Assembly (NCBI GenBank): GCA_958296045.1
Contig: CATQHT010000001.1
Coordinates: 773,395-837,394, forward strand
Direction of reading: 5' to 3'
DNA from: Rhodothermales bacterium
GTDB lineage: Bacteria > Bacteroidota > Rhodothermia > Rhodothermales > Bin80
Length of the DNA stretch: 64,000 nucleotides
The notes beneath the pieces were generated by a model, which saw only the letters and a list, made by a program, of their open reading frames with translations, did not search any database and had not been told where the DNA came from. How positions within the stretch are numbered: the stretch's first letter is position 1; every line of letters starts with the position of its first letter. Positions 3,035 through 54,139 of the stretch are shown one piece after another. The position numbers and the translations under genes are program-made.

Positions 3035-3039
3035 CTGCG

Positions 3040-6438: not shown

Positions 6439-7526
6439 CCTGCCGCCATAAATCCGCTTTTGGCGGTGGTCGCCTCGCTTTGGTGCCAGCGCTGACAGTT
6501 GCGATGATGGCTGCCGCCATCCTTGCGATGCCCGCTCATGGCCAGGACGACCCGGCCACGCCCGACGCTAGCACGATCACTCGCGTAGGCACTACGGCTG
6601 CGCAGTTTCTCAAGCTCGGCGTCGGCGCCCGCGCCATTGCGCTGGGAGGCGCATACGTGGCAGAAAGCAGCGACCTGTCGTCGCTGTACTGGAATCCCGC
6701 CGGACTGGCTAGGCTGAGCGGCCACAATGTGCAGCTCAATGCCACGCGCTATCTCGCTGACGTGGAATACAATATGGCTGCCTTCGGCACCATCGTACCG
6801 GGCATTGGGAGCGTTGGACTTTCGCTGCTCCTTCTAGACTCTGGCGACATGGCTGTGCGCACCGAATCCGACCCAGAGGGCACTGGCGAGCAGTTCAAGG
6901 TGCAGAGCTTTGCTATCCAGGCCACGTTTGCCCGAAACCTCACGGATCGTTTTTCTATCGGTGGATCGCTGAAATACATACAGGAGCGTATCTGGCACAG
7001 CACCGCTTCTGCCATCGCCATCGATGTCGGGACCCTATTCACGACGCCGTTTGACGGGCTGCGCCTAGGGGCCAGCATGTCAAATCTGGGACCGAAGATG
7101 CGCATGGACGGGCGCGACATTCTGTTCAGCGAGGATCCGAGTCCCAACACGCAGGGAACGGCGGAAATCATCAATGCGCAGTACCGCATGGATGCCCATC
7201 CGCTGCCGCTGTTGTTTCGCGTAGGGGTGGCGTGGGATGCGTACGATACCGGAACGCATCGGCTTCTGGTGTCCACGGATGCGGCGCATCCGAACGACAA
7301 TGCGGAGTATATCAATGCAGGCTTCGAATACAGTTTCCGCGACCTTATTGCCTTCCGAGTCGGTTACCGCAACCTCTTTGAGCCAGACACAGAGCAAGGG
7401 CTCACCGCTGGTGCCAGCCTTCAGCTTCAGGTAGACCGGTCGCTGCGCACCAGCTTAGACTATGCGTACGCGGACTTTGGCCGTCTGACTGAGACGCACT
7501 GGTTTACCGTCAATCTATCGTTCTGA
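6435..7526 (+). CDS. PorV/PorQ-family outer-membrane beta-barrel protein (T9SS shuttle-like paralog)
   Basis: 363 aa. The start overlaps the upstream stop (ATGA at 6435-6438). It has a signal peptide, the PorV/LptO-type motif 'GARAIALGGAYVAESSDLSSLYWNPAGLA', and ends ...TVNLSF. Confidence 0.75.
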   Translation: MTCRHKSAFGGGRLALVPALTVAMMAAAILAMPAHGQDDPATPDASTITRVGTTAAQFLKLGVGARAIALGGAYVAESSDLSSLYWNPAGLARLSGHNVQLNATRYLADVEYNMAAFGTIVPGIGSVGLSLLLLDSGDMAVRTESDPEGTGEQFKVQSFAIQATFARNLTDRFSIGGSLKYIQERIWHSTASAIAIDVGTLFTTPFDGLRLGASMSNLGPKMRMDGRDILFSEDPSPNTQGTAEIINAQYRMDAHPLPLLFRVGVAWDAYDTGTHRLLVSTDAAHPNDNAEYINAGFEYSFRDLIAFRVGYRNLFEPDTEQGLTAGASLQLQVDRSLRTSLDYAYADFGRLTETHWFTVNLSF

Positions 7527-7529
7527 CGC

Positions 7530-9152
7530 GTGCGGCGGCTACTCTTTGTGCTTGCAGCATTCGTATGGGCGCCGTCTGTGGCAGGTCAGCTTGTAGCGGA
7601 CATGATTGATGCGCCGGTTGCTGTGACGGCGCCTGTGTTGCAAGTGGACGGTGCGGCCCGCGTCATCGCCATCGAGAGTTCAGGAGCGCTTTCGCCGTTC
7701 ACAGGCATCGCGCTCCAGGGTACTGCCACTGGAGACTCATTGCATGGCCAGGTACGGTTTGAGTCGGCAGTGGGTGCTGGCTGGAGCGCATGGGCACCGC
7801 TGTATATCGTGCGATCGTACACGGATGCTGCATTCCTGGCTGCGTACCGCAGCGACGAGGTGCATACCGCTCTTCGCTTTGAGCTCCGTTTTGAGCTCTC
7901 TGCCAAAGGAACGGTGGAGATTATTCAGGCGGGGACGTTTCTCGATGAGGCGCCATCGCCGCCACCGGACGCGGCGCCAAGAGGTGGGCAGGCGAGCGAT
8001 TACAAGATTATGGCCCCCGACCTGCATGATCGTGCGGAATGGGGCGCGGAGCCCTTCCGGGGCACCCCGCAGCCGCTTGCCCAGCCGGATTACTTGCGCA
8101 TGACGCTGCACCATACCGCGGGGTTTGCTGCGGTGACGCTGACCGAGGGTCTGGAGCAGGTGAAGCGAATCCAGGATTTTCACCAGAACGGCCGCGGCTG
8201 GAGCGACATTGGCTACCACTACTTGATGGACCAAGAGGGTCGGCTGTACCAGGGGCGTCCATGGCTTAACCCGAGCGCGCCGTTTGATCAGGGGCCACCG
8301 TTGGCTTTGGGCGCACATGTGGGTGGCAACAATACGGGCAACATTGGCGTGTCGCTCATGGGATGTTACCATCCTCCAGAAGGGTCCGACTGCCAGGATG
8401 AGATGACCGTAGCTGCGGTGGATTCTCTCGTGGCCTCGTACGCATACCTCTCCGAGCGGTACGGCGTTAATCCAGATGCTCTGCGCGGCCATCGCGACTT
8501 CAGCAGTACCGCCTGCCCGGGTGACAACAATTACGGGATGCTGGATTCATTCCGTGAAGACATTGCGGACCTTCTCATCACCGGTAACGCGGCCTTGGGC
8601 ACCGCTGCGCTGTCGGCCATTGCGGATACCTCGGGCGTAGTCGCGCTGCGGTGGCGTTTTCTGACTGACCTGGGCATCGATACCTTTACCATATGGCGTG
8701 ACGGACTTGGTGGGCGTTCGCCCATCGTGGTTCGCCGTGGCGCCGTCGATGGAACCTGGGTGGACACAGCGGTGAAGCGTCCTGGTGCGTTGACGTACAG
8801 TCTGGTGGCACGAGGTTCGCACAGGCGGGAACAGATCCTCAGCACGGCGACGGTGGAGGTACGTGGGCACGCGGCTATTCATTTGGCACATAGCTTCCCC
8901 AATCCTGCTTCGGCAAGCACCACCATCCGGTACTTTCTTGCGCAGGCCGGCATCGTGACGCTGGAGGTGTTTGATGCGGCAGGCCGCCGAGTGGCCAGTT
9001 TGGTGGAGGCGTACAGAGATAAGGACTTGTGGTACTCTGTTGTGTTGAATACGCGTGGGTTGGCACCTGGCACATACTACTATCAGCTGCGCGTCGAGGG
9101 GTTTGCGGACACGATCTATCAGGCAGCCGCGCCGCTGGTCGTTGCGAGGTAG
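7530..9152 (+). CDS. N-acetylmuramoyl-L-alanine amidase (amidase_2/PGRP fold) with T9SS C-terminal sorting domain
   Basis: 540 aa with a GTG start. Motifs: 'LHHTAG', 'GWSDIGYHYLMDQEGRLYQGR', 'GAHVGGNNTGNIGVSLMG', 'GHRDF..TACPG'. The C-terminus 'FPNPASASTTIRY..VTLEVFDAAGRRV..GTYYYQLRV' is a T9SS CTD. Confidence 0.8.
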   Translation: MRRLLFVLAAFVWAPSVAGQLVADMIDAPVAVTAPVLQVDGAARVIAIESSGALSPFTGIALQGTATGDSLHGQVRFESAVGAGWSAWAPLYIVRSYTDAAFLAAYRSDEVHTALRFELRFELSAKGTVEIIQAGTFLDEAPSPPPDAAPRGGQASDYKIMAPDLHDRAEWGAEPFRGTPQPLAQPDYLRMTLHHTAGFAAVTLTEGLEQVKRIQDFHQNGRGWSDIGYHYLMDQEGRLYQGRPWLNPSAPFDQGPPLALGAHVGGNNTGNIGVSLMGCYHPPEGSDCQDEMTVAAVDSLVASYAYLSERYGVNPDALRGHRDFSSTACPGDNNYGMLDSFREDIADLLITGNAALGTAALSAIADTSGVVALRWRFLTDLGIDTFTIWRDGLGGRSPIVVRRGAVDGTWVDTAVKRPGALTYSLVARGSHRREQILSTATVEVRGHAAIHLAHSFPNPASASTTIRYFLAQAGIVTLEVFDAAGRRVASLVEAYRDKDLWYSVVLNTRGLAPGTYYYQLRVEGFADTIYQAAAPLVVAR

Positions 9153-9999: not shown

Positions 10000-12099
10000 T
10001 CAGCGTGTTTGCAGAGTTCGAGATCGGATCGTCAACGCAGGGTTGAGGCTGAAGAAATTGTGCGGCCTTATGTGGATTGTCTTCCAGTCCGTCGACATAA
10101 CCGGCCAGTCCTCGGCCCGGGTAATGTGGTGGAAGCCTGTGGTGAACCAGGTCACCACATCTGTGCCCTGCAGCGGTCTGTCGGCCTTGACCCACTCGGC
10201 CAGCGTATCCGAGCCGTCGCTCTGCATCGCGAAGTCGCCGCCGGCGTAGCGCCGGGTCGGGTCGTAGACGGTGTTCCATATTGTATACTCGATGTAAGCG
10301 TTGCGCTTCATTGGCGGGTCAACCGCGAAGTCGAATGGCCCGTAAGCCACGTTGCCGTGGTGGATCATGTATGCAGGGTGGTGGCCCAGCGGCGTAAGCT
10401 CGGCCTCGTTTGCCACCAGGAAGTACCTTGGCGCCACAGCGCTTAGTCTGTAGCGAGCCTTGAGCTCAGTGGCTGGGTGCGAGCGTCGAACGGTCCAGAA
10501 GGAGCGGCGCGGGTTGTCCGGCGGCGGTTCATCCGGTACGATCTCCAGGACAGCGGGGTGGTTGAAGCGACCGTCGATGTCAAAGTCAAGGCGGAAGTTG
10601 AAATAGTGGTCGTGGAACGGGGCCACAAGATTCGGCGCTACCAACGTTCCGTGTGCGGTATCGGTGGCGGAAGAGTCCTGCATGGTAGTGGAAGCAACAC
10701 CCTTGACCGCGTCCAGACCGGTGGCACCAATTGCGATATGGATGTCACCGTTCTGCCGAAACCGATAGTCGATCAGATAGTCGTAGTTGCCGATCACCGA
10801 AGCAGTGCGCACAACCAGCTCGGTATCCGGCCTACCCTCGGCTGGGACAAACCTGTCATCGCTTTGGGCGAACACCTCGAAATGTCGCCACGCAGGGTCG
10901 CCAACGTAGCGCTCGAATATGCAGATGACATCTGGAATCGTAAGTGGCTGGCCCCGATCATCGCTGACGACCGTGGGCAGGAAGGTGGCATGGGCGGGAC
11001 AATCGAGGCCAGCTTCGAGCGGGCTGAGGAACAGGCCAAAGCCGTATTCGCCGCTGTCCATAAAGGTGCGGAAATACCAGCTCTGCGCGGGGTCCATGTA
11101 GGGCACGAACACCTCGGAGAGGTGGGCTTGGTAGAGCACCGAGCGCCATCGCTCGCCGTCGCGCACATCTACGGTAGAAAGTACCACACCCTCGCGCTTA
11201 CCAACGCGCAGGCGGAAGCGCCAGATGTCCCACATAACACGGGAGCCCTCTATTTCGAAGCCAGCGCCGCCCGGTTGCGCCAAAGTGACTGGGCTCGACC
11301 GGGGTCGCAACGGGACCCGGGCGGCTACCTCGTGCTGCGTGTACCCCCAGTTATCTTTCGGCACTGGTACAACAGCTTCATCGACTACGTCGATAGCGCG
11401 GTTCGACGATAGATCTACGACTGCCAGAAGGCCCTCTATCGGCTTGGCGTAGTAATTCGAACCAGACGGGTTGAGGTAGCAGGGGACTTTCATCAGGCGC
11501 GTGCCGTCGTACTCCGGCGCCGGGTAGTTGCCGGCGGTTAGCGGCAGACAAAACACGTCGTCTGGCGTCAAGCCCCTTCGTGTTAATCCGGCGACCATGC
11601 CCGGATGCTCGAGAGCGGCGTTCATGGCACTGGTGAACTCCTCGAATAGCACCATCGGCTGCCCCTCGGCCGGGCCGGCGGCCACAACTGCACCGCGATC
11701 GAGGTCGACGACGGCAGTGCGGAAATCGCTTCGGTCGTGAAGATGTACCAAGGCGCGACGGGGCCCAGGGTCTCCGTCCGTCCACGCTAGCACAGTGGCC
11801 TTCGGCGGCTCGAGCAATTCGATCAGCGGGTATCGTGTCTGGTCATCCGCCTCGCCAGAGTGATTTAAAATCTCGGTGACACGGCGGATTTCTGCGCTCG
11901 TCAAGCCGTCAAGCGGGTGGGGGGTCGCCAATGCTTGGCCACCAGACGGCCTGGCAGTTGTGGCCATCAGCACAATGGCGAACAGCAGCCCTATCGCCGC
12001 GGGGTGGCCAAAGGCGACCGCGAATCGGTTTTGGACTCCCTTGTGCTGCCACACGCTGGTGCAAGGTGTGCTGTTGAGCGCGGAATGTACAGGACTCAT
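10000..12099 (-). CDS. Copper-containing primary amine oxidase (TPQ cofactor)
   Basis: 699 aa. It has the TPQ consensus 'SVIGNYDYLIDY' and the His-ligand regions 'FHDHYFNFRLDFD' and 'GFHHITRAEDWPVM'. The N-terminal hydrophobic/signal region means the true start may lie internal to the ORF start. Confidence 0.9.
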   Translation of the reverse strand: MSPVHSALNSTPCTSVWQHKGVQNRFAVAFGHPAAIGLLFAIVLMATTARPSGGQALATPHPLDGLTSAEIRRVTEILNHSGEADDQTRYPLIELLEPPKATVLAWTDGDPGPRRALVHLHDRSDFRTAVVDLDRGAVVAAGPAEGQPMVLFEEFTSAMNAALEHPGMVAGLTRRGLTPDDVFCLPLTAGNYPAPEYDGTRLMKVPCYLNPSGSNYYAKPIEGLLAVVDLSSNRAIDVVDEAVVPVPKDNWGYTQHEVAARVPLRPRSSPVTLAQPGGAGFEIEGSRVMWDIWRFRLRVGKREGVVLSTVDVRDGERWRSVLYQAHLSEVFVPYMDPAQSWYFRTFMDSGEYGFGLFLSPLEAGLDCPAHATFLPTVVSDDRGQPLTIPDVICIFERYVGDPAWRHFEVFAQSDDRFVPAEGRPDTELVVRTASVIGNYDYLIDYRFRQNGDIHIAIGATGLDAVKGVASTTMQDSSATDTAHGTLVAPNLVAPFHDHYFNFRLDFDIDGRFNHPAVLEIVPDEPPPDNPRRSFWTVRRSHPATELKARYRLSAVAPRYFLVANEAELTPLGHHPAYMIHHGNVAYGPFDFAVDPPMKRNAYIEYTIWNTVYDPTRRYAGGDFAMQSDGSDTLAEWVKADRPLQGTDVVTWFTTGFHHITRAEDWPVMSTDWKTIHIRPHNFFSLNPALTIRSRTLQTR

Positions 12100-12305
12100 C
12101 GTCGGAATTCGTTTAGTGGAGGGACCTCTTGCAAGACCCGTTAAGCAGAGAGGATTTCTGGGTAGGTTACAAAACTAAGGACCGGATGCTCCGATTCCGG
12201 CATTTCCCGGGTAGCCAAAATGGATAATGAAAACGTAAGGCAACTAGAGGCGCCCATATTCCTTAGAGCAATGCTACGTGGTATCTGCATCAGTTGTCAA
12301 CGACA

Positions 12306-13202
12306 GCTCCCTTTCTTGAGCAACGAAGCGTTGCAGGCCTGAGCATCCTGGATTTCCCACTCCCCCGGTGGCTGCGTCCTCGCTATCGAACTCAGCGACC
12401 GCCTACTGGAATGGACAAGCAAGCCGGGCCCGAGGAACCTTCAGCTCGCTTCTGGAAACCGTCCATGGTCGGCCACGAGGCTCCGCTACATGAGCCGCTT
12501 CCCGATCGTCTTTGCCACGACGTGCTGAGTCTGGACCATCGTATCCAATGCCCGGATGTTGTACCGCCCCGCGAAGGCGTGGACGTAGGCCTGGAGGTGC
12601 TGCGTGCTGAGTCGGTGGTAGACCCCCTTATGTGCCCGCGCAAGCTATCTGCCAGAACGAATTGACCCCGTTCATGTGGATCGTCGCGCTTACGAGATAC
12701 CGGACGTATTCGGCCACCGAGTGCGTCACCGTCTCGTGTTCTCGCCCGGTTTCCTTGAAGGCTGCCGTGTCGTCGGTGAAGACTAGAGCGCCGGGGGCTG
12801 CATGTTCGACCGCGAAGCCCTGTAGCGTCTCCCGCTTCATGCGGTCAATCACCCTCGCGACTATGTGTCCGGTCACCCGGTCCTTGGTCTGGAGCACCGC
12901 AGTCTTCCCGGACCCCAGCCCACCTCTACCAGTTCGAGTTGCTCCAATTCGCCCGTTTACCGCCAACGTTGCACTCGTCCACCTCGACCAGCCCCTCGAA
13001 GCCGGTCCGCACCTCGTCGAATGCCTCCCGGATCCAATGTAGCATGAACCAGGCGTACGGGTACGAGATATCGGTGCAGCTTGATCGCTCCGACTTCCTT
13101 GTGGCTGGTCCGTTCGAGGTAGATTGCCCAATCCCACATCTGAAAGGGACGCTTCGAGGCTTCCATGCTGGTCCCGGTCTTTCCGATGTGGCTCTTAGTC
13201 AT
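12306..13202 (-). pseudogene. IS1595-family transposase, 5'-truncated and frameshifted (copy A)
   Basis: Three minus-strand frames together give 'TGTSMEASKRPFQMWDWAIYL..', 'HRDISYPYAWFMLHWIREAF..LVEVDECNVGGKR', 'GKTAVLQTKDRVTGHIVARVIDRMKRETLQGFAVEHAAPGALVFTDDTAAFKE..HETVTHS..YV..TIHMNGVNSFW' and 'KGVYHRLSTQHLQAYVHAFAGRYNIR'. This is the IS1595/ISXO2-like DDE layout. The N-terminal zinc-ribbon part is absent. Confidence 0.75.
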
Positions 13203-16200
13203 TGTAGTCGCCTCTTGGATTCGTTGAACGACGCCATTAGCAGCGCGCCAATGCGCTGTGCCATATGCGAAAAATATTGAACCTCATCAGGACGAAGTGC
13301 TCTGTTCAGGACTTTATGTTCCCGATAGGATAACCACTTCTTAAGCACCTGGTAACCGCTAAGCCGGTAGTTCCAGACGCTGGCCGGGACGTTGGACCAG
13401 AAGGCTTCCTCATTCAGGTACACATCGAAGGTCGTTTCACCGAGTACGGTTATGTGCTTTGACAGCGCGTCGCGCTCCTCCACTCGATAAGCGCGTTCGA
13501 CAATGCGGCCGTTTCCGGGCATTACTGCGTCACCATTACCGCGGCGACCCCAGCCCGCGGTTACCTTGAAGTTCTTGTCCGCCATATAGAGCGCCTCAAC
13601 CTTACTCGCAACACCAATCTTGGGATACAGCTGTATCCCGGTGCTGCTTGGCACGGGTTGCTCCGAATCGAGCAGCGCGGCCAGCAAGCGCCCGCGTCTT
13701 GCCGAGCGAGTTAGTGCTTGAGCCGCTCCTTTGCCCCCGCCATCCGGCCATCCGGGCAGAGGGATGCGCGGCCATTCCATGCGCAATGCTCCAGAGTTGG
13801 CTTCTCGATACGCTGGATCATGCAGTGTCGCAAGCACATGGTGAAACAAATCTTCGACACCAAGACCGAGGCGGGCGAGATACTGCTCCGCCCGTCCGGT
13901 AAGGTTTGCACGGCGTTTTTCACGACCATCGCACGTCAGCCCATTGTCGAGCAGCCAAGCCGGAAACCAGCTGGACAGTCCGTTCCCGAAGTTATCAGCG
14001 AGATTGCCCACCGAGGTTCCTCGCGTGAATTCTTCCCGAGCCTCGCGTTCACGGGCTTCAAGCCATATATTCCCGTTGAATACTTGTGGCGCGTAGTCGG
14101 CGCGCTTTCTGTCGAGCAGCTTCGTATCCTTCTCCCAGTAAAGCCACCGGGTGTCGAATGGCCGGTATGCAAAGCGAATGAACCCGCTTTCGTCTGGCCC
14201 TCCGCGCCTGAGGAGCGCGTCGCGCACTGGACGGGCATCGAACTGAGCAGTGGACTTCATAGCCCTCGGATAGCGTCGCGCGATCTCCTCATGGCTCAGT
14301 CTCGAGTCAAAATATTCGCCAATACGCGTCTTGAGGCAGTCAAGGTCTATGTCAACCAGAAAGCTGTCGCGACTTGTCTTAACGCCGGGAAAAGAGACAG
14401 GGAACAGGTCAGGCAACGCAGGCCATTCGAACCAGTCACTACTCATGGTTATTGGCTTGAATGGCAGACCCAGTGGAATGGAAGGTGTGAAATCGGAGTA
14501 CAGTGTGTCTGAATCGGTCTCGGCAGAGACGATTAGCTCAGCAGCTTTTGACTGTCCCCACAAATGCCGGAAGGCGATGGCGCCGCTGGGTTTGTGGTTC
14601 CGTTTACGAATCAGCGTCGCAATGGCCGTACCCACCTGAATACCCACCGACTTGCTAGGGACCGTGAATATGCTCGGATCCGGTTCTCCAGAGGGCGTCT
14701 TGCCTCCCTTTCGCGTATCGCCGTTCAGGCAGTCGATCCGAATCGTGTCAAATGCCTTCAGGTAACGCTCCCTCATCCCGGTAAAGGACAAGCCGTCCAG
14801 CCAAGAGTAGTTGGAGATGAAGCAAACTACCCCTCGCCCGGTTTTTTCCACGATGCGTCGCTCAGCCATGCGGAAGAAGCGCACGTATAGGTCATTCAGG
14901 CCCTGTCCTTTGGGTCTGCGCACGCGTTGAGTCGTCCGGTACGCTTCTGAGAGCTCGCGTTCCTCATTCACCGCCACGCTTGCAAAACCGTTGTAGGGCG
15001 GGTTGCCTAGGATCACAAGAACCGGTTTCTTTTGCTTCACCTGCTCCGCCCGGTCGCGCTCCTCTTCGAATTCCGGGAAGAGCAGCGGCTTGGTCGTGCC
15101 CGGCTCCCAGCCCGTTAGCGCATTGGTAAGAAAAACCCCGGGACGCTCCGATCCGTCTCCCGCTAACGGTATGCCCAGATTCTGCATCGTGAGGCCAATC
15201 TGCAGATGGGCCACCACGAATGGCGCAGGCATGATTTCGAATCCGAAGACTCGCTCAGTCGCTGCCTTCTTTATGTACACGCCGCCGAGCGCCCCGAAGC
15301 CCTGCTCCTTGAGATTGCCAGCGATGCGGCGGAGCACTTCCGCTAGGTAGGCGCCCGTGCCACAGCACGGGTCGAGCACATATACGTTCTCGTCCGCGAG
15401 TCCTGCCGCGATGCTCAGATCGTCCTTCAGCGCCCTATCCACGCGCGCCACCATGTACTGAACAACTGTGGTCGGTGTGTACCAAACCCCCAACTGCTTT
15501 CTGAGAACGGGATCGAATGCTTCGAGGAACGGTTCGTAGAAATACTGAACCGCCTCTCCCTCACTAAACCGTGAAAAGAACTTTGTCCTCTCCACCCGGT
15601 CCAGCGCTGCTGATGTCCAATTCAGTATCTCGTCCAGGCCGAGCGGCTTCAATCGGCCCGGGTCGGACAGCTGCTGAAACAAGGCGCGCAGCACGGGTGT
15701 ACGCAAAAACCAGACCGCTTCGCGCCAATTGAACCGCTTTGGAGTATAATGGCCGTCGTATAGTGGGCCGCTGCTCTTATCCTGAACATTGCGAGACCAC
15801 AGCACCCACGCGGAAAAGACGCCGTAGAACAGCGTCTGAATCAAAGTCGAATGGAAGAAATGTTTCCCCCGCTCTCCCTCGAATCGAATCCCAAGCGCTT
15901 CCTCCATTGCCGAGCGGACGGCCAGAAGCGATTCACCATTCCCCGCCGCTGTAATGCGATCCAAGCCGTCGCGCGCGTAGGAAGCCAGCAGCCACGCCAA
16001 GTCTTTGGGCTCGGCCAGGGTGGCCTGCTGCGAAAGCGCCCGCGCCAGATACTCACCGAGGCTCATGCCCACCTTGTGGGCGAAATCGCGCGGTTCTTCC
16101 ACCCTGCGCCAGAATTCGTCTACTGCCTCCGCCAGCGTGAAAGACTCGAGCTTGGCGTGGCTTCCCGTCCCATCCGGTCCCACTAGAACGAAGCTCCGAA

Positions 16201-16633
16201 GATTCGTAACCAGCACCAGCTGGTAATGGCCCAGGTATCGGCTCACCTGCTCGGAGCGCGCCGTCAAATGGGCGTCGTCATACACGCCCTTCACCTCGAC
16301 GACGCCGCGCTCTGGAATCTGCCCCGGCATCGGACGGCCCCTCTGAATTTGCCCCGACGCGTACAAAGCAATGTCGGGATGGCCAACCCCCTGATCTGCC
16401 AATTCGGACACGCAGAATACCGTGGGCTTGAGCGTAGCGCCCACGGCGCCCAAAAGGCCTGCCAGCGCCGGATAATACGACCGTTCTCTTGTCGCGCCGC
16501 CGGAGGCACGCACATGCCGGATATCCGCAAAATATGCCTCCGCCGCAGCAACCAGCTCCTTGTTCGTTTTGGCCATGGTATTATTCCAGCAATTCAGGTG
16601 CGGCAAGCAGCAGCGGCATTAGCATTAAGGTAA
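12872..16633. repeat. Direct repeat, copy A of the collinear 3762-bp core (offset 4267 bp to copy B)
   Basis: Base-by-base comparison with 17139-20900. Homology ends exactly after 'attaaggtaa' (16633). It extends further left, with indels, to ~12305. Confidence 0.9.
13199..16576 (-). CDS. Single-chain type IIG/IIL (MmeI-like) restriction-modification enzyme: PD-(D/E)xK-like nuclease + N6-adenine methyltransferase + TRD (copy 1)
   Basis: 1125 aa counted from the ATG shared with copy 2. The track ORF runs 10 codons further upstream, to 16606. N-terminus 'HPDIALY...VVEVKG..SRYLGHYQLVLVTNLRSFVL', SAM motif I 'VLDPCCGTGAYL', motif IV 'LGNPPYNGF', and C-terminal 'YRLSGYQVLKKWLSYRE', a motif seen in MmeI-family and type ISP enzymes. 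Confidence 0.8.
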   Translation of the reverse strand: MAKTNKELVAAAEAYFADIRHVRASGGATRERSYYPALAGLLGAVGATLKPTVFCVSELADQGVGHPDIALYASGQIQRGRPMPGQIPERGVVEVKGVYDDAHLTARSEQVSRYLGHYQLVLVTNLRSFVLVGPDGTGSHAKLESFTLAEAVDEFWRRVEEPRDFAHKVGMSLGEYLARALSQQATLAEPKDLAWLLASYARDGLDRITAAGNGESLLAVRSAMEEALGIRFEGERGKHFFHSTLIQTLFYGVFSAWVLWSRNVQDKSSGPLYDGHYTPKRFNWREAVWFLRTPVLRALFQQLSDPGRLKPLGLDEILNWTSAALDRVERTKFFSRFSEGEAVQYFYEPFLEAFDPVLRKQLGVWYTPTTVVQYMVARVDRALKDDLSIAAGLADENVYVLDPCCGTGAYLAEVLRRIAGNLKEQGFGALGGVYIKKAATERVFGFEIMPAPFVVAHLQIGLTMQNLGIPLAGDGSERPGVFLTNALTGWEPGTTKPLLFPEFEEERDRAEQVKQKKPVLVILGNPPYNGFASVAVNEERELSEAYRTTQRVRRPKGQGLNDLYVRFFRMAERRIVEKTGRGVVCFISNYSWLDGLSFTGMRERYLKAFDTIRIDCLNGDTRKGGKTPSGEPDPSIFTVPSKSVGIQVGTAIATLIRKRNHKPSGAIAFRHLWGQSKAAELIVSAETDSDTLYSDFTPSIPLGLPFKPITMSSDWFEWPALPDLFPVSFPGVKTSRDSFLVDIDLDCLKTRIGEYFDSRLSHEEIARRYPRAMKSTAQFDARPVRDALLRRGGPDESGFIRFAYRPFDTRWLYWEKDTKLLDRKRADYAPQVFNGNIWLEAREREAREEFTRGTSVGNLADNFGNGLSSWFPAWLLDNGLTCDGREKRRANLTGRAEQYLARLGLGVEDLFHHVLATLHDPAYREANSGALRMEWPRIPLPGWPDGGGKGAAQALTRSARRGRLLAALLDSEQPVPSSTGIQLYPKIGVASKVEALYMADKNFKVTAGWGRRGNGDAVMPGNGRIVERAYRVEERDALSKHITVLGETTFDVYLNEEAFWSNVPASVWNYRLSGYQVLKKWLSYREHKVLNRALRPDEVQYFSHMAQRIGALLMASFNESKRRLQ

Positions 16634-16815
16634 CGGTGAATGCGTGACTGAGGCAACATTCCCCTCCCTCACAGACGGACCCTGTAGCCGATCCAGCGCT
16701 CCCCCCCCAGGGGGGCGAATTCTTGGACCGCGTCCGAAGCCGTGCGATATCGCTTAGCTTCGCGGTTTCGTAGTTGGTGGCCTCCACGTCGAACGGCTTG
16801 CGCGGGTTATGGCAG

Positions 16816-17469
16816 GCTCCCTTTCTTGAGCAGCGAAACGTGCAGGCCTGAGCCTCCAGGTTTTTCCAGCTCCTGTATGTTACGCCGCCCTGCGAAGGCG
16901 TTGACGTAGGCCTGGTGGTTCGGGATGAGCCGGTGGCAGACCTCCTTGTGTACCTGCTTCAGCATCGAAATGACTCGACCCCGTTCGTGTGGATCGCCAC
17001 GCCTTCGGGATACCGGGCGTATTCGGCCGCCGAGTGCGTCACCGTCTCGCGCTCTCGCCCGATGCCCTTGTAGGCTGGCGCTTCGTCGGTCTAGAGGAGA
17101 GTGCTGGGGTCGCATTTAGGTCCATAAAGCCCTGGAGTGTCACCCGGTCCTTGGCCTGGAGCACCGCGGGCTTCCCGGACCCCGGCCCACCTCTACCAGT
17201 TCGAGTTGCTCCAATTCGCCCGTTTACCGCCAACGTTGCACTCGTCCACCTCGACCAGCCCCTCGAAGCCGGTCCGCACCTCGTCGAATGCCTCCCGGAT
17301 CCGATGTAGCATGAACCAGGCGTACGGGTACGAGATATCGGTGCAGCTTGATCGCTCCGACTTCCTTGTGGCTGGTCCGTTCGAGGTAGATTGCCCAATC
17401 CCACATCTGAAAGGGACGCTTCGAGGCTTCCATGCTGGTCCCGGTCTTTCCGATGTGGATCTCAGTCAT
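16816..17469 (-). pseudogene. IS1595-family transposase, 5'-truncated, frameshifted and internally deleted (copy B)
   Basis: It has the same junction and N-terminal fragment as copy A ('MTEIHIGKTGTSMEASKRPFQMWDWAIYL') and the C-terminal 'SMLKQVHKEVCHRLIPNHQAYVNAFAGRRNIQ'. It lacks ~45 bp and ~190 bp that are present in copy A. Confidence 0.7.
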
Positions 17470-20400
17470 TGTAGTCGCCTCTTGGATTCGTTGAACGACG
17501 CCATTAGCAGCGCGCCAATGCGCTGTGCCATATACGAAAAATATTGAACCTCATCAGGACGAAGTGCTCTGTTCAGGACTTTATGTTCCCGATAGGACAA
17601 CCACTTCTTAAGCACCTGGTAACCGCTAAGCCGGTAGTTCCAGACGCGGGCGGGGACGTTGGACCAGAAGGCTTCCTCATTCAGGTACACATCGAAGGTC
17701 GTTTTACCGAGTACGGTTATGTGCTTTGACAGCGCGTTGCGCTCCTCCACTCGATAAGCGCGTTCGACAATGCGGCCGTTTCCAGGCATTACTGCGTCAC
17801 CATTACCGCGGCGACCCCAGCCCGCGGTTACCTTGAAGTTCTTGTCCGCCATGTAGAGAGCTTCAACCTTACTCGCAACACCAATTTTGGGATACAGCTG
17901 TATCCCGGTGCTGCTTGGCACGGGTTGCTCCGAATCGAGCAGCGCGGCCAGCAAGCGCCCGCGTCTTGCCGAGCGAGTTAGTGCTTGAGCCGCTCCTTCG
18001 CCCCCGCCATCCGGCCATCCGGGCAGAGGGATGCGCGGCCATTCCATGCGCAATGCTCCAGAGTTGGCTTCTCGATACGCTGGATCATGCAGTGTCGCAA
18101 GCACATGGTGAAACAAATCTTCGACACCAAGACCGAGGCGGGCGAGATACTGCTCCGCCCGTCCGGTAAGGTTTGCACGGCGTTTTTCACGACCATCGCA
18201 CGTCAGCCCATTGTCGAGCAGCCAAGCCGGAAACCAGCTGGACAGTCCGTTTCCGAAGTTATCAGCAAGACTGCCCACCGAGGTTCCTCGCGTGAATTCT
18301 TCCCGAGCTTCGCGTTCACGGGCTTCAAGCCATATATTCCCGTTGAATACATGTGGCGCGTAGTCGGCGCGTTTTTCGTCAAGCAGCTTCGTATCCTTCT
18401 CCCAGTAAAGCCACCGGATGTCAAATGGCCGGTATGCGTAGCGGATGAATCCGCTTTCGTCTGGCCCTCCGCGCCTAAGGAGCGCGTCGCGAACGGAGCG
18501 GGCATCGAAGCGAGCAGTGGACTTCATAGCCCTCGGATAGCGTCGCGCGATCTCCTCATGGCTCAGTCCCGGGTCAAAATATTCGCCAATACGCGTCTTG
18601 AGGCAGTCAAGGTCTATGTCAACCAGAAAGCTGTCGCGACTTGTCTTGACGCCGGGAAAAGAGACAGGGAACAGGTCAGGCAGCGCAGGCCATTCGAACC
18701 AGTCATTACTCATGGTTATTGGCTTGAATGGCAGACCCAGTGGAACGGAAGGTGTGAAATCGGAGTACAGTTTACCTGAATCGGTCTCGGCAGAGACGAT
18801 TAGCTCAGCAGCTTTTGACTGTCCCCACAAATGCCGGAAGGCGATGGTACCGTTGGGTTTGTGGTTCCGTTTACGAATCAGCGTCGCAATGGCCGTACCC
18901 ACCTGAATACCCACCGACTTGCTAGGGACCGTGAATATGCTCGGATCCGGTTCTCCAGAGGGCGTCTTGCCTCCCTTTCGCGTATCGCCGTTCAGGCAGT
19001 CGATCCGAATCGTGTCAAATGCCTTCAGGTAACGCTCCCTCATCCCGGTAAAGGACAAGCCGTCCAGCCAAGAGTAGTTGGAGATGAAGCAAACTACCCC
19101 TCGCCCGGTTTTTTCCACGATGCGTCGCTCAGCCATGCGGAAGAAGCGCACGTATAGGTCATTCAGGCCCTGTCCTTTGGGTCTGCGCACGCGCTGAGTC
19201 GTCCGGTACGCTTCCGAGAGCTCGCGTTCCTCATTCACCGCCACGCTTGCAAAACCGTTGTAGGGCGGGTTGCCTAGGATCACAAGAACCGGTTTCTTTT
19301 GCTTCACTTGCTCCGCCCGGTCGCGCTCCTCTTCGAATTCCGGGAAGAGCAGCGGCTTGGTCGTGCCCGGCTCCCAGCCCGTTAGCGCATTGGTAAGAAA
19401 AACCCCGGGACGCTCCGATCCGTCTCCCGCTAACGGTATGCCCAGATTCTGCATCGTGAGGCCAATCTGCAGATGGGCCACCACGAATGGCGCAGGCATG
19501 ATTTCGAATCCGAAGACTCGCTCAGTCGCTGCCTTCTTTATATACACGCCGCCGAGCGCCCCGAAGCCCTGCTCCTTGAGATTGCCAGCGATGCGGCGGA
19601 GCACTTCCGCTAGGTAGGCGCCCGTGCCACAGCACGGGTCGAGCACATATACGTTCTCGTCCGCGAGTCCTGCCGCGATGCCCAGATCGTCCTTCAGCGC
19701 CCTATCCACGCGCGCCACCATGTACTGAACAACTGTGGTCGGTGTGTACCAAACCCCCAACTGCTTTCTGAGAACGGGATCGAATGCTTCGAGGAACGGT
19801 TCGTAGAAATACTGAACCGCCTCTCCCTCACTAAACCGTGAAAAGAACTTTGTCCTCTCCACCCGGTCCAGCGCTGCTGATGTCCAATTCAGTATCTCGT
19901 CCAGGCCGAGCGGCTTCAATCGGCCCGGGTCGGACAGCTGCTGAAACAAGGCGCGCAGCACGGGTGTACGCAAAAACCAGACCGCTTCGCGCCAATTGAA
20001 CCGCTTTGGAGTATAATGGCCGTCGTATAGTGGGCCGCTGCTCTTATCCTGAACATTGCGAGACCACAGCACCCACGCGGAAAAGACGCCGTAGAACAGC
20101 GTCTGAATCAAAGTCGAATGGAAGAAATGTTTCCCCCGCTCTCCCTCGAATCGAATCCCAAGCGCTTCCTCCATTGCCGAGCGGACGGCCAGAAGCGATT
20201 CACCATTCCCCGCCGCTGTAATGCGATCCAAGCCGTCGCGCGCGTAGGAAGCCAGCAGCCACGCCAAGTCTTTGGGCTCGGCCAGGGTGGCCTGCTGCGA
20301 AAGCGCCCGCGCCAGATACTCACCGAGGCTCATGCCCACCTTGTGGGCGAAATCGCGCGGTTCTTCCACCCTGCGCCAGAATTCGTCTACTGCCTCCGCC

Positions 20401-20900
20401 AGCGTGAAAGACTCGAGCTTGGCGTGGCTTCCCGTCCCATCCGGTCCCACTAGAACGAAGCTCCGAAGATTCGTAACCAGCACCAGCTGGTAATGGCCCA
20501 GGTATCGGCTCACCTGCTCGGAGCGCGCCGTCAAATGGGCGTCGTCATACACGCCCTTCACCTCGACGACGCCGCGCTCTGGAATCTGCCCCGGCATCGG
20601 ACGGCCCCTCTGAATTTGCCCCGACGCGTACAAAGCAATGTCGGGATGGCCAACCCCCTGATCTGCCAATTCGGACACGCAGAATACCGTGGGCTTGAGC
20701 GTAGCGCCCACGGCGCCCAAAAGGCCTGCCAGCGCCGGATAATACGACCGTTCTCTTGTCGCGCCGCCGGAGGCACGCACATGCCGGATATCCGCAAAAT
20801 ATGCCTCCGCCGCAGCAACCAGCTCCTTGTTCGTTTTGGCCATGGTATTATTCCAGCAATTCAGGTGCGGTAAGCAGCAGCGGCATTAGCATTAAGGTAA
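17139..20900. repeat. Direct repeat, copy B of the collinear 3762-bp core
   Basis: Matches 12872-16633. Homology ends at 20900, immediately before 'tgtagggagc' (the putative IS30 left end). Confidence 0.9.
17466..20843 (-). CDS. Single-chain type IIG/IIL (MmeI-like) restriction-modification enzyme (copy 2)
   Basis: 1125 aa, collinear with copy 1 at a +4267 bp offset, with the same nuclease, MTase and C-terminal motifs. There are ~20 aa differences, almost all in the C-terminal ~440 aa. Confidence 0.8.
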   Translation of the reverse strand: MAKTNKELVAAAEAYFADIRHVRASGGATRERSYYPALAGLLGAVGATLKPTVFCVSELADQGVGHPDIALYASGQIQRGRPMPGQIPERGVVEVKGVYDDAHLTARSEQVSRYLGHYQLVLVTNLRSFVLVGPDGTGSHAKLESFTLAEAVDEFWRRVEEPRDFAHKVGMSLGEYLARALSQQATLAEPKDLAWLLASYARDGLDRITAAGNGESLLAVRSAMEEALGIRFEGERGKHFFHSTLIQTLFYGVFSAWVLWSRNVQDKSSGPLYDGHYTPKRFNWREAVWFLRTPVLRALFQQLSDPGRLKPLGLDEILNWTSAALDRVERTKFFSRFSEGEAVQYFYEPFLEAFDPVLRKQLGVWYTPTTVVQYMVARVDRALKDDLGIAAGLADENVYVLDPCCGTGAYLAEVLRRIAGNLKEQGFGALGGVYIKKAATERVFGFEIMPAPFVVAHLQIGLTMQNLGIPLAGDGSERPGVFLTNALTGWEPGTTKPLLFPEFEEERDRAEQVKQKKPVLVILGNPPYNGFASVAVNEERELSEAYRTTQRVRRPKGQGLNDLYVRFFRMAERRIVEKTGRGVVCFISNYSWLDGLSFTGMRERYLKAFDTIRIDCLNGDTRKGGKTPSGEPDPSIFTVPSKSVGIQVGTAIATLIRKRNHKPNGTIAFRHLWGQSKAAELIVSAETDSGKLYSDFTPSVPLGLPFKPITMSNDWFEWPALPDLFPVSFPGVKTSRDSFLVDIDLDCLKTRIGEYFDPGLSHEEIARRYPRAMKSTARFDARSVRDALLRRGGPDESGFIRYAYRPFDIRWLYWEKDTKLLDEKRADYAPHVFNGNIWLEAREREAREEFTRGTSVGSLADNFGNGLSSWFPAWLLDNGLTCDGREKRRANLTGRAEQYLARLGLGVEDLFHHVLATLHDPAYREANSGALRMEWPRIPLPGWPDGGGEGAAQALTRSARRGRLLAALLDSEQPVPSSTGIQLYPKIGVASKVEALYMADKNFKVTAGWGRRGNGDAVMPGNGRIVERAYRVEERNALSKHITVLGKTTFDVYLNEEAFWSNVPARVWNYRLSGYQVLKKWLSYREHKVLNRALRPDEVQYFSYMAQRIGALLMASFNESKRRLQ

Positions 20901-22193
20901 TGTAGGGAGCTATAACAACATCTACTAGACACGTTGTAAAGGCCGGGTCCATTTAACAAGGAAGTGCAACACTTGATTTGGCAGAGCAATGGGTTGGCGA
21001 GCGCGTTGGCATCCCGATGGAGCCGTAAGGTCCAGAGGCTGTTGGTAGGTATTGTGGTGATTGGAGGGTATCAGATGGCAAAGGGCTACCGTCATCTTTC
21101 GTACGAGGAAAGGTGTCAGATTCATGCGTTGAAAAAGCGGGCGGATTCAATACGCGGCATAGCGCGGCAGTTGGGTCGTTCGCCATCGACGATCAGTCGA
21201 GAGGTGCGGCGCAACAGTGGAGGTGGAGGCTATCGGTATAAGCAGGCGGACTGATTCGCTCGTGCGCGGCGCCAGAAAGCGTCGTTGCATCCTCGTAAGC
21301 TGACCGCAGCGCTGTGGGCCATGGTGCGCGAGAAGCTTGCCTTGCACTGGAGTCTGGAGCCAATCGCGGGTCGGCTTCGTCATGATGGGGTCGTTGCGTT
21401 GAGCACCACATGGATCTACCGGTACATTTGGAGCAACAGGGTAGCTGGAGGATCGTTGTACAAGCTAATTCTCCGTAGCGGTAAGCGTTACAGCAGGCGT
21501 AGCCAGCGCGGTGCTGGGCGCGGCCTGATACCGAATCGTGTAGACATCAGCGAACGGGATCCCATAGTGGAGAGCAAGACGCGTATAGGCGACTGGGATG
21601 TGGATACGATCATTGGGGGCAAGCACCAGGGTGCGTTGGTATCGATGGTCGACCGTGCGTCGAAACTCGCGTTTCTTGCACTGGTATCTTCGAAGGCTGC
21701 GAGCGGTGTCCGCCGCGCGATCGTAGCGTGTCTGAAACCGGTGAAGGATCGGGTGCATACTATCACGGCGGACAACGGGAAGGAATTCGCTCATCACGAG
21801 CAAATCGCCCGGGCCCTTTTAGCGTCGTTTTACTATGCGCGGCCGTACCATTCCTTAGAGCGTGGCGTGAACGAGCACACCAATGGCCTGGTACGGCAAT
21901 ACTTTCCGAAGGCGACCAACTTCCGCGCTGTTGAGCCGGCAGCGGGAATGCGGGTACAGACGATTCTGAAGGATCGTCCACGTAAGTGCTTGGGTTACCG
22001 CACACCGGCGGAAGTCTTCATTAGCGCGCGGTAGGCTGCAGCGGCCGCTGTGGAGGGTGCACCAAGGTCTGAGCCAGACCCGACAGCAGAAGCCGGTGCG
22101 CCTGGATCAGCGATTCCCAGCAGTTCAGCTTGTGATGATGGATTGATTTGGTCGTATAACCAGAACGACCGGTAGAGCACGATACCGTTTACA
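20901..22193 (+). mobile_element. IS30-family insertion sequence (right end uncertain)
   Basis: The left end 'TGTAGGGAGCTATAACAACATC' resembles the TGTAG.. terminus of IS30 and begins exactly where repeat homology stops. The element contains an IS30-type transposase. The candidate right end '..ccgtttaca' (22193) gives only a weak inverted-repeat match. Confidence 0.6.
21075..22034 (+). pseudogene. IS30-family transposase interrupted by one in-frame TGA (21252-21254)
   Basis: 'MAKGYRHLSYEERCQIHALKKR..IRGIARQLGRSPSTISREVRRN' (HTH) is followed by TGA. The same frame then continues '..FARARRQKASLHPRKL...DWDVDTI...ITADNGKEFAHHE...YFARPYHS.ERG.NEHTNGL.RQYFPK' (DDE). Confidence 0.8.
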
Positions 22194-22690: not shown

Positions 22691-23854
22691 ATGAAGAAAC
22701 CTAGTAACGCAAACGCAGAGCAGAGAAAGATCTTCGTGGGTCTTGATGTCCACAGGGACACGATTGCTGTCTGCGCGTACGATCCACAAAAGCACGCGAA
22801 CTGCTATGCTCTGGAAATTTCCAGCCATGACCCGAAACGGCTCCGCACTGTGATGGAGAACATCCGCGACAAATTCGGTGAGCCGCAATGCTGCTATGAG
22901 GCATCATCCTGCGGTTATACGCTCTATAGAACGTTGCACGACCTTGGGTTCGCCTGCGAGGTGATTGCACCGTCCTCGGTGCCACGGCGACCCGGTGACC
23001 GGGTAAAGACGGATCGCGGTGATGCAGCGAAGCTCGCCCAGTTCTATGCGGCCGGTCTATTGACGGTGATTCACGTACCAGACGACGCCCTGATCAGCGA
23101 GCGATCCGTCGTGCGCCGACGGGTTTCACTCGCTCAAGATCTGACCAAGGTCAAGCAGCGTCTAGTGCTCTTATTGCAAAGCCGCGGTCATGTATACCGG
23201 GCAGGCAAGAACTGGACGCAAAAATTCTGGCACTGGTTGAACGACCTATCTCTTAACGATAACGATGCATTTACGCTGGGCACCCTGATGGCTCAGATTG
23301 ATACGCTCAATGCCCAGATCCGCCAGGTAGAAGACCGAATCGCAGAGATTTCAAAAACCTCCCGATACCAGCGAACGGTACAGGAACTGCAAGGCTTCCG
23401 CGGCATCGATCTCTTTACAGCCATGCAGTTGGCCTGTGAACTGGGAGACATCCGCCGTTTCGCACATCCCAGGTCGCTGATGGCGTACGTTGGGCTAGTA
23501 CCTTCGGAGCACTTTTCCGGAAGCCACACACGACCCGGTCCTATCACTAAGACACGGAACGCTTTTGCTCGTAGGGCGCTGATCTCTGCGGCGTGGAAAT
23601 ACACGCACCCTCCGCGGCGCAGCGTGGCCTTGATCCGTCGCCAGGAGCACTGCACGCCAGCCGTGATTGCCATTAGTTGGCGGGCCCAGCAACGACTCCA
23701 CAAACGGTACCAGCGGCTGGTACATCGTAAGGCGCCGTCCAAAGCTATCGTGGCCATTGCACGTGAACTTACCGGCTTTCTCTGGGAAGCTATGCAGACG
23801 GTGCCGCCAGTGGCGGCATCGTCTCAGGAACCACGTATCACCCCTTCAACCTGA
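22691..23854 (+). CDS. IS110-family transposase (DEDD RuvC-like N-domain + Tnp_20 C-domain)
   Basis: 387 aa with 'IFVGLDVHRD', 'CCYEASSCGY', 'VKTDRGDAAKLA', and C-terminal 'LQGFRGIDLFTAMQLACELGDIRRF..PRSLMAYVGLVPSEHFSG....GPITKTRNAFARRAL'. Confidence 0.9.
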   Translation: MKKPSNANAEQRKIFVGLDVHRDTIAVCAYDPQKHANCYALEISSHDPKRLRTVMENIRDKFGEPQCCYEASSCGYTLYRTLHDLGFACEVIAPSSVPRRPGDRVKTDRGDAAKLAQFYAAGLLTVIHVPDDALISERSVVRRRVSLAQDLTKVKQRLVLLLQSRGHVYRAGKNWTQKFWHWLNDLSLNDNDAFTLGTLMAQIDTLNAQIRQVEDRIAEISKTSRYQRTVQELQGFRGIDLFTAMQLACELGDIRRFAHPRSLMAYVGLVPSEHFSGSHTRPGPITKTRNAFARRALISAAWKYTHPPRRSVALIRRQEHCTPAVIAISWRAQQRLHKRYQRLVHRKAPSKAIVAIARELTGFLWEAMQTVPPVAASSQEPRITPST

Positions 23855-36689: not shown

Positions 36690-36779
36690 CAAATCGACCA
36701 GTGGTTCCACGGGAAATCGACCACCGATTCCACGGCAAATCGACCAGTGGCTCCACGGCAAATCGACCACCTGAGCTGG
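36690..36779. repeat. IS21 left-end subterminal direct repeats (3.9 x 23 nt, 'aaatcgaccaNNgNttccacgg')
   Basis: Read directly: 36690-36712, 36713-36735, 36736-36758, and a partial unit at 36759-36779. Confidence 0.85.
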
Positions 36780-36946
36780 CGCGCGCCGACCGGTGGCGGC
36801 GGGGTGTAGGAGGTCGGTTAACGGGCCTGCCAAATTGGCAGTCTGGCGGAGTTAGAAACGGGTTATTGTTGCCTGTCGCGGGTGATGGCGGCAGGGCAAG
36901 CGCAGGTGGTATCGTACCCTCTTTACTTACCAAAAGAGGGGTACTT

Positions 36947-53689: not shown

Positions 53690-54139
53690 GCCCGTAAGGT
53701 AACGGACACAAACGTGGTTGTCAAGTCGACCATTAGCCCAAGGGGCAGACCTAGGATCCGCCCTTACGTACGCGGGCATACCTGCGTGACTACGCCGCAT
53801 ACATGCCAAAAACGCACGTCAACCCCAGTCCGCATGGCCGCTCGATCATTGACCAGGTGCGCCCTCAATAGAAGATCACCCGCACCCGCAACCAGATTCC
53901 CGAAGAACATCGGCGAATAGCGATACCTGTCAGAGCTAAGAGTCATGGCTGCTCTGCTGAGTTGAGTATTCCTCAACCTGCCCGAAGCCGAGGTTACCGC
54001 ATAGCCATAGAGGACCGCACCCAAACATAAGCAGGGCAAATCTCCCGGCTTAAATGCCCTTTGCGAGACAATTACGTTGGTCCGCTGCCAGAGTCAAGTA
54101 GCAACGGCACCGCCGAAGCAAACACCGAGAAGCACGGCA

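Follow-up and report, generated by a model that had tools for sequence, protein, structure and literature searches.

The window analysed here, a 64,000-nt stretch of a Rhodothermales bacterium contig (CATQHT010000001.1, positions 773,395 to 837,394), carries a tandem pair of intact genes predicted to encode stand-alone type IIG/IIL restriction–modification (RM) enzymes resembling DrdV. The pair is a mosaic, generated by gene conversion or allele exchange and held under purifying selection, and on balance we favour the view that the two enzymes differ in specificity by one base. Both genes lie on the minus strand, at 13199–16576 (copy A, protein-database entry P0121) and 17466–20843 (copy B, entry P0001); all coordinates are those of the whole window. 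They bear out the first-pass annotation of this DNA, which had described two intact 1125-aa minus-strand open reading frames (ORFs) at a constant offset of 4267 bp: the copies are collinear at that offset, neither contains an internal stop or a frameshift over 3375 nt, and the encoded single-chain proteins are 98.1% identical. Note that an in-frame TTG upstream of the start of copy A would yield a 1135-aa product.

Each protein is predicted to comprise, from N to C terminus, a PD-ExK nuclease, a helical connector, a gamma-class N6-adenine methyltransferase (MTase) and a target recognition domain (TRD) of the Type ISP kind. Pfam recognizes Type_ISP_C (PF18135) at residues 723–1092 (127.8 bits, 6.6e-37), along with N6_Mtase and Eco57I, and the REase_MTase_IIG models of PADLOC match residues 26–533 (4.4e-85) and 323–941 (7.6e-68). 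The best match of solved structure is DrdV (PDB 7LO5), with residues 343–940 aligned to DrdV 283–878 at an E-value of 2.7e-33 for the single sequence and 1e-38 for the family profile; with the profile it is followed by LlaBIII (2e-32) and LlaGI (3e-31), and a further PDB match was to a chain, 7vru, that is a methyltransferase by its depositor's name only. The S-adenosylmethionine (SAM) motif I, VLDPCCGTGAYL (residues 400–411; 15344–15379 in A, minus strand), and the catalytic NPPY (residues 525–528, within GNPPYNGF at 524–531; 14993–15004 in A, minus strand) are identical in the two copies, as is the whole MTase stretch that they delimit (14993–15379 in A, 19260–19646 in B, minus strand), and the motif GYQVLKKWL is found at residues 1074–1082. 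The putative nuclease residues E31, D68 and E94-x-K96 (16289–16486 in A, 20556–20753 in B, minus strand), which form a PD-ExK-type motif (HPD68 ... E94-V-K96), are invariant in 50 family members. Hence all the motifs that the first-pass annotation had listed, the PD-(D/E)xK-like one included, are present. E31, D68, E94 and K96 correspond to DrdV E25, D64, E79 and K81 at the level of the motif, the N-terminal alignment itself being non-significant (-3.6 bits). Indeed, the N-terminal 340 aa matched no nuclease or MmeI model at E <= 10, the lone match (PAP_PilO, E 0.11) being at chance level.

These searches do not support the assignment to the MmeI family that had been made from the letters alone. 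MmeI_Mtase was the only MmeI Pfam model to match, and its 16.2 bits fall short of the cut-off of 27; MmeI_N, hel, TRD and C gave no match. Among the chains matched in the PDB, whether by the single sequence or by the family profile, none is labelled MmeI or has its length, DrdV and the Type ISP enzymes being matched instead; "MmeI-like" would thus describe the general design only. Nor are these Type ISP enzymes, since Pfam, NCBIfam and PADLOC revealed no superfamily 2 (SF2) helicase-like ATPase/translocase domain; LlaGI and LlaBIII align only from their MTase domains onward. PglX of the BREX system was rejected as well: its model scored merely 2e-5 (20.5 bits), and no brx/BREX protein is present among the tested neighbours. 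By contrast, the claim that each copy is complete in itself stands, because no neighbouring family is conserved across the loci of about 70 relatives: any given flanking protein family is present in at most 7 of them, and no conserved partner gene emerged.

The duplicated unit is larger than the gene. A collinear block of high identity (12872–16633 versus 17139–20900; 98.46% over 3763 nt) continues leftward, with indels and at 75–86% identity, so that the full repeat spans 12306–16633 for A and 16816–20900 for B, which accounts for the start at 12306 that the first-pass annotation had given. A unit of about 4.1–4.3 kb, made of the RM gene and a dead IS1595 remnant, therefore occurs twice in direct orientation. 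Upstream of the gene, the copies share a 57-nt leader with 1 mismatch (16577–16633 for A, 20844–20900 for B, minus strand), beyond which their sequences are unrelated, and the two units are separated by a 182-nt junction (16634–16815, no strand assigned) without match elsewhere in the window. Immediately 3' of A, against the RM stop codon, lies a frameshifted IS1595-family transposase remnant without its N-terminal zinc-ribbon part (12306–13198, minus strand); the one 3' of B (16816–17465, minus strand) is shorter, with about 190 nt and 46 nt less. A DDE_Tnp_IS1595 domain is recognizable (49.5 bits), the reading frame being split over three frames in both copies. Since the 5' truncation of the remnant and its abutment on the RM stop codon are identical in both copies, one ancestral arrangement of RM gene and insertion sequence (IS) remnant was duplicated. 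The remnants are 98% identical over their proximal 327 nt and 75–86% identical over the distal part.

Two IS-driven origins were considered and set aside. The idea that an active IS1595 transposon carries the RM gene along was rejected: both copies have a truncated, frameshifted transposase, and no association with IS1595 is apparent in the relatives. Unequal crossing-over between flanking IS copies is disfavoured, as copy B has no IS1595 sequence upstream of it and the junction is a unique sequence.

Copies A and B differ by 51 nt in 46 codons, of which 21 are non-synonymous and 25 synonymous. The first-pass annotation had counted about 20 replacements, all but one in the last ~440 aa, and had placed the differences in the TRD part of the protein; the pattern is right and every substitution that it gave as an example is correct, the exact figures being 21 replacements, one at codon 388 and 20 at codons 664–1104, that is, in the last 462 aa. 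The synonymous differences cluster in the same region as the replacements. None falls within the first 433 codons (P = 5e-6 under uniform positions), the earliest lying no earlier than codon 434. The longest identical run, of 1188 nt, extends from 27 nt of the leader through the nuclease and connector into the first part of the MTase (15416–16603, minus strand, 100% identical to 19683–20870 of B), and 0 of 20000 permutations contained a run as long; we infer that it is a gene-conversion tract.

The synonymous and non-synonymous divergences (dS and dN, Nei–Gojobori method) were computed for successive blocks of codons. Both are 0 for codons 1–387; dS and dN then amount to 0.020 and 0.002 for codons 388–660, 0.049 and 0.045 for codons 661–720 (values based on just 8 differences), 0.188 and 0.040 for codons 750–865, and 0.037 and 0.009 for codons 866–1125. 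The most divergent block, hereafter the TRD core (codons 750–865; 13982–14329 in A, 18249–18596 in B, minus strand), contains 11 of the 21 replacements; helix H and Loop V, as defined below, have their equivalents here, as do the six residues with which Loop VI begins (860–865). Outside this core and the identical first 387 codons, most of the repeat unit differs by 1–4%. Because dS runs from 0 to 0.19 along the gene, the pair is a mosaic, produced by gene conversion or allele exchange, and not the recent duplicate splitting by simple divergence that had been proposed. It is also under purifying selection: dN/dS (omega) is 0.25 overall and 0.21 in the most divergent block, both significantly below 1, and 0.27 for codons 661–1125, and the share of replacements is significantly under the neutral expectation (p = 4e-5). 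Positive selection, which the comparison of dN with dS might have revealed, is unsupported. An excess of codons hit twice (five) was also considered as a sign of selection and dismissed, a rough hand estimate from the local divergence of 8% giving about that number.

This pattern suggests that the duplication is not very recent and that gene conversion has homogenized most of the unit; alternatively, a diverged TRD-core allele would have been recombined into one of the copies. The divergence of the distal part of the IS remnants, about 20%, is close to the dS of the TRD core and thus fits an older duplication in which conversion spared just the TRD core and the margin of the unit. Other IS copies may also have converted the remnant ectopically, and a diverged TRD-core allele may have been imported from an unsampled close strain. 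That a known outside relative supplied the TRD core finds no support: A and B are mutually closest in every block (92% versus at most 86%). Apart from this, codon 700 (14477–14479 in A, 18744–18746 in B) encodes Ile in one copy and Val in the other, where Leu is invariant in 48 of 48 relatives, and at codons 1066 and 1104 the copies likewise differ both from one another and from the family consensus.

We then mapped base contacts onto the two proteins from HMMER alignments, with an uncertainty of 1–3 residues around helix H and Loop VI. The DrdV MTase contacts N448, Q485, K486, K488, N548, R554 and D564 correspond to N525, 556–559, 622, 628 and 639, and the DrdV TRD contacts N673, R721, Y764, D803 and K807 to S735, ~781–785, 823, ~861/862 and ~865/866. 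The recognition elements defined for Type ISP enzymes (PMC4872093) fall at 730–737 (Loop IV), 782–790 (helix H), 820–827 (Loop V) and 860–869 (Loop VI). A and B are identical in all MTase recognition loops, in Loop IV and in Loop VI. Two replacements affect recognition elements: helix H has P783S, and Loop V has R823E (the residue of A first). The latter, a charge reversal, makes codon 823 the candidate specificity switch: it reads AGA (Arg) at 14108–14110 in A and GAA (Glu) at 18375–18377 in B, on the minus strand.

Residue 823 aligns with DrdV Y764 in pairwise and profile alignments, and with LlaGI N1327 in the profile alignment; through published structure-based alignments, its position is that of LlaBIII R1319 and of TaqII R777 and TaqIII Y777 (PMC4872093, PMC5587805). 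In the outermost base pair, the guanine is contacted in bidentate fashion by LlaBIII R1319, and among Type ISP enzymes an Arg at the position of LlaGI 1327 correlates with C:G at that pair (PMC4872093). By this correlation, an Arg here would predict an outermost C:G pair whose guanine lies on the unmethylated strand. Similarly, R777 versus Y777, plus S737 or P737 in helix H, have been proposed to separate the specificities of TaqII and TaqIII (PMC5587805).

The covariation of residue 823 within the family singles out a second changed position. Among 185 non-identical relatives, residue 823 is Glu in 115, Arg in 69 and Asp in 1, and its state covaries with positions 824, 818, 819 and 778, the mutual information for 778 being 0.64 (fourth-ranked of 1124 positions). 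Every E823 is accompanied by R778 (115/115), and wherever 778 is not Arg, 823 is Arg (55/55), which gives a 2x2 table of 115/14/0/55 (Fisher 4e-34). Codon 778 is CAG (Gln) at 14243–14245 in A and CGC (Arg) at 18510–18512 in B (minus strand). Both copies obey the rule: B displays the common class I state, R778 ... E823-K824, and A displays Q778 ... R823-K824, so that two of the 21 replacements strike both members of the coupled pair in the direction that the rule allows. Over the TRD, B is of class I (R778, S783, Y802, I809, E823) and A is in a hybrid state (Q778, P783, F802, T809, R823). The coupling does not merely reflect shared ancestry, since 625 of the 1312 pairs of proteins at least 90% identical over residues 1–660 differ in the state of 823.

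Taken together, these data lead us to favour, without great confidence, a difference of one base between the specificities of A and B. The two enzymes most likely recognize related asymmetric motifs that are alike at most positions, as the identity of the MTase loops, Loop IV and Loop VI would imply. The base pair that differs is probably the outer one, read by residue 823 of Loop V (Arg in A, Glu in B) together with the coupled residue 778 (Gln in A, Arg in B), and the helix-H residue 783 (Pro in A, Ser in B) perhaps also contributes. By homology with DrdV, each enzyme would bind its asymmetric motif between the MTase domain and the TRD and flip the target adenine. Each would then methylate the adenine of its own motif, thereby protecting the host, or alternatively, after assembly of several protomers on DNA, cleave unmodified DNA a fixed distance away, as DrdV does.

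The chief competing explanation, possible though clearly less probable to our minds, is that the pair is a redundant tandem duplicate of unchanged specificity, which arose by IS-associated local duplication and diverged by near-neutral drift at tolerant surface positions of the TRD, with incidental conversion; the second copy would then have a dosage effect at most, or the copies would be en route to loss. Several observations favour it or weigh against a shift in specificity. With omega well below 1 and no excess of replacements, drift at tolerant sites explains most of the replacements, and the sites at which A and B differ are indeed among the more variable, high-entropy sites of the family (p = 0.004). 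The four TRD recognition elements receive 2 of the 20 C-terminal replacements where their length predicts about 1.5, which is no enrichment, and the most variable recognition loop of the family (~857–870) differs just at N858S, two residues before Loop VI. The combination R778+R823 is also found in 14 relatives, so that 778 and 823 may be a structural pair (e.g. a salt bridge) and not a base-reading one. The alignment to LlaBIII by hidden Markov model (HMM) places the mapping two residues off. Besides, AlphaFold2 run on a 50-sequence alignment (70–77% identity) gave a mean predicted local distance difference test score (pLDDT) of 34.9 and a predicted template modelling score (pTM) of 0.27, a model unusable for mapping in three dimensions because the alignment was too shallow in diversity. 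Finally, local duplicates are common in the family and mostly decay, and the copies L026 and L034 among the relatives are co-resident and have identical recognition loops, which shows that retained paralogs do not always differ.

What the redundant-duplicate explanation does not account for is that the strongly covarying residues 778 and 823 have both changed, as the rule predicts, and that the charge reversal at 823 affects a residue homologous to base-contact residues of DrdV, LlaGI and, according to the published alignment, LlaBIII. In addition, the TRD core remained diverged (dS 0.19) while its flanks were homogenized, and both ORFs are fully intact despite their age. The first-pass suggestion that the copies have diverged at specificity residues thus fares unevenly: the R823E change at a base-contact-aligned residue and the concordant change at 778 agree with it, whereas the lack of enrichment in recognition elements does not.

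The family to which A and B belong is very large: all 8000 of the 8000 scored candidates had E < 1e-20. Relatives with 57–76% amino acid identity are found in metagenome-assembled genomes (MAGs) of at least ten phyla, which include Acidobacteriota, Gemmatimonadota, Latescibacterota, Chloroflexota, Binatia, Proteobacteria, Nitrospinota and Thermodesulfobacteriota; a scan of GTDB representatives, among which the source genome does not figure, gave a best match of 74%. Judging from bin names, most of these bins look like products of sponge-microbiome projects, a distribution suggestive of one defence gene having been transferred horizontally on a large scale within sponge-associated communities. 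Many pairs from different contigs are 97–99% identical over residues 1–660 and just 51–90% identical in the TRD core (750–865). Since near-identical N-terminal parts carry different TRD cores, exchange of the core on a constant N-terminal framework is normal variation in this family, and these alignments imply that recombination often exchanges a module of some 100 codons.

Local duplication is frequent as well, as judged from same-strand N- or C-terminal RM fragments that lie 0.3–9 kb from a full-length gene in 8 of 80 loci (L006:18286-19029; L008:14726-14956; L009:1031-1633 and 5541-6052; L020:18980-20135; L023:14102-14388; L045:5625-5911; L053:106-684; L074:17636-18016). Most are 78–99% identical to the full-length copy, the shortest (L023 and L045) being 39–50% identical to it. 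These fragments look like decaying local duplicates and may also serve as donor cassettes for TRD exchange. Intact arrays exist too: a Latescibacterota chromosome carries three tandem intact paralogs of 1116, 1119 and 1112 aa (L036:10001-20933), 86–91% identical, of which the first combines MTase-loop type a with TRD class I, the second type b with class II and the third type a with class II, dS exceeding 1 in the swapped blocks versus 0.1–0.5 elsewhere. Two further paralogs, of class I and class II (P0065 and P0105), are dispersed on one chromosome. As a separate observation, a small ORF (about 164 aa, starting MKPTVYIETSVISYL) that looks like a putative PIN/VapC-type toxin lies directly 3' of the RM gene in five relatives (e.g. 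L033:13563-14057), and a degraded copy of it is present between copies 1 and 2 of the three-copy array (13349–13919 of that locus).

Such arrays raise a bolder idea, which we regard as unlikely, namely that tandem copies of this enzyme work as one combinatorial defence module with mixed cleavage complexes. In DrdV, the nuclease and connector domains mediate the assembly of several DNA-bound protomers and thereby license cleavage. Gene conversion would keep these domains identical, so that paralogs with different TRD cores could co-assemble; sites of two or three motifs on invading DNA would then cooperate in cutting, raising the effective target density, and each paralog would still protect its own motif on the host genome. 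The three-copy Latescibacterota array would be the mature form of the module and the pair in the window an early or minimal form.

A functional defect in one copy, which would then for instance only methylate or be inactive and would be maintained solely through repair by conversion from its neighbour, is improbable. Copy A does deviate from the family at the conserved positions G388S (G in 43/48), H831Q (H in 46/48) and R778Q, copy B at D690G (D in 41/48), and both from the invariant L700, but such derived states are distributed over both copies, all catalytic motifs are identical and intact, neither gene contains a disrupting mutation along its 3375 nt, and omega, at 0.25, is that of constrained proteins. 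Similarly improbable is an assembly artefact joining head to tail two strain variants of a single-copy locus in a metagenome, for although the source appears to be a metagenome-type assembly, both proteins are seen just on a single 1.05-Mb contig and the differences between A and B resemble allelic variation (an exact search of metagenome contigs for a 36-nt junction sequence gave 0 matches and is uninformative), the units have different non-repeated flanks and the unique 182-nt junction, their IS remnants differ by large indels and ~20% divergence, unlike co-assembled strain alleles, and long, chromosome-scale assemblies of relatives, obtained independently, contain three-copy arrays as well as decaying duplicates next to the gene.

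We also looked for regulatory and recombinational features at the locus. A scan for promoters and terminators gave fewer matches than in shuffled sequence, and none upstream of either RM gene. The pair does not have the make-up of a phase-variable or shufflon-type locus, the copies being in direct orientation with no homopolymer of 7 nt or more and no simple sequence repeat inside either gene, and the nearby recombinases are IS30 and IS110 transposases, not site-specific invertases. The junction contains a C8-A-G6 palindrome at ~16699–16714, about 125 nt 5' of the start codon of copy A; this tract, the sole homopolymer of at least 7 nt in 12000–21400, could form a hairpin or terminator between the genes or be prone to slippage.

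The density of insertion sequences in the window is unusually high. In addition to the two IS1595 remnants, an IS30 (21064–22034, its N-terminal part interrupted by a stop) and an IS110 (22691–23854) lie beside copy B, and an IS21 (36671–39288, followed by an adjacent 259-aa ORF) and an IS4 (51395–53809) are found farther off. Other neighbours of the RM genes in the window encode a copper amine oxidase and a subtilase. An 1894-aa protein (55395–61079) has leucine-rich-repeat (LRR) regions resembling the LRR domains of type III effectors, its gene containing internal DNA repeats of ~79% identity (57957–58318 versus 58473–58837, and 59790–59970 versus 60078–60258), and may be a eukaryote-like repeat protein as in host-associated bacteria. 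At the other end of the window, 275–9152 is a cluster related to type IX secretion (T9SS), which points to a bacterium of the FCB group or a related one as the source. It encodes an outer-membrane protein of the SusC/TonB type, a member of the PorV/PorQ family, a protein ending in a T9SS sorting tail and a 1132-aa protein.

If the specificities of A and B do differ, the pair would be a natural near-isogenic one, 21 residues apart, with one clear candidate determinant (778/823); it would then provide a direct test of the base-reading code of the DrdV/Type ISP TRD fold and bear on the engineering of restriction enzymes and methyltransferases of chosen specificity. New here are the tandem arrangement with its clear mosaic of concerted evolution, the very small number of differences and the family context. 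The family itself, with its wide spread across phyla, its exchange of TRD cores and its repeated local duplicates and arrays, offers a concrete system in which to follow how defence specificity diversifies and moves in a host-associated community. Current concepts are unchanged, because co-resident paralogous IIG/IIL enzymes with distinct motifs and the swapping of TRDs are already documented.

So-called domain movement is known from Helicobacter type IIG/III genes. In Type I systems, TRDs of HsdS are swapped between conserved frameworks (PMC5399793). The present family shares with these systems a conserved framework and exchangeable specificity modules moved by homologous recombination at conserved flanks; it differs in that what is exchanged is only part of a single-chain enzyme, a segment of about 100 codons, and the alleles in the window differ by point substitutions only. 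With the MmeI family, whose single-base specificity engineering is documented (PMC2731914, PMC4833311), A and B have in common a general design, a nuclease, an MTase and a TRD united in a single chain, with individual bases set by a small number of residues of the TRD (PMC2731913, PMC2731914, PMC4833311), but they are not members of that sequence family, its Pfam domains being absent or below threshold. Compared with LlaGI and LlaBIII, which are Type ISP enzymes, the MTase and TRD are homologous (E ~1e-31) and the recognition elements mappable (PMC4872093); however, the proteins are some 450 aa shorter (1125 versus ~1570 aa) and have no SF2 helicase-like ATPase/translocase, and therefore the translocation–collision mode of Type ISP cleavage cannot apply here.

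DrdV, a type IIL RM enzyme (PDB 7LO5/7LVV), recognizes CATGNAC, methylates one strand and cuts at a fixed distance, which requires several bound sites or oligomerization (bioRxiv 10.1101/2021.01.06.425610). It has the domain order predicted for A and B, an NPPY gamma-class MTase, a C-terminal TRD and a stand-alone gene, and is of comparable length at 1029 versus 1125 aa; the similarity is distant only, the N-terminal 340 aa are not significantly aligned, and the recognition residues differ. The closest functional precedent is that of TaqII and TaqIII of Thermus aquaticus YT-1, which are 93% identical, recognize GACCGA and CACCCA, and are encoded on two separate plasmids (PMC5587805). Like A and B, they are co-resident related single-chain enzymes (IIC/IIG/IIL) with a Type ISP-like TRD, and their position 777, proposed to set the outermost base, corresponds to position 823 here. 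TaqII and TaqIII are, however, about 7% of residues apart and plasmid-borne, whereas A and B are adjacent, 98.1% identical and a conversion mosaic.

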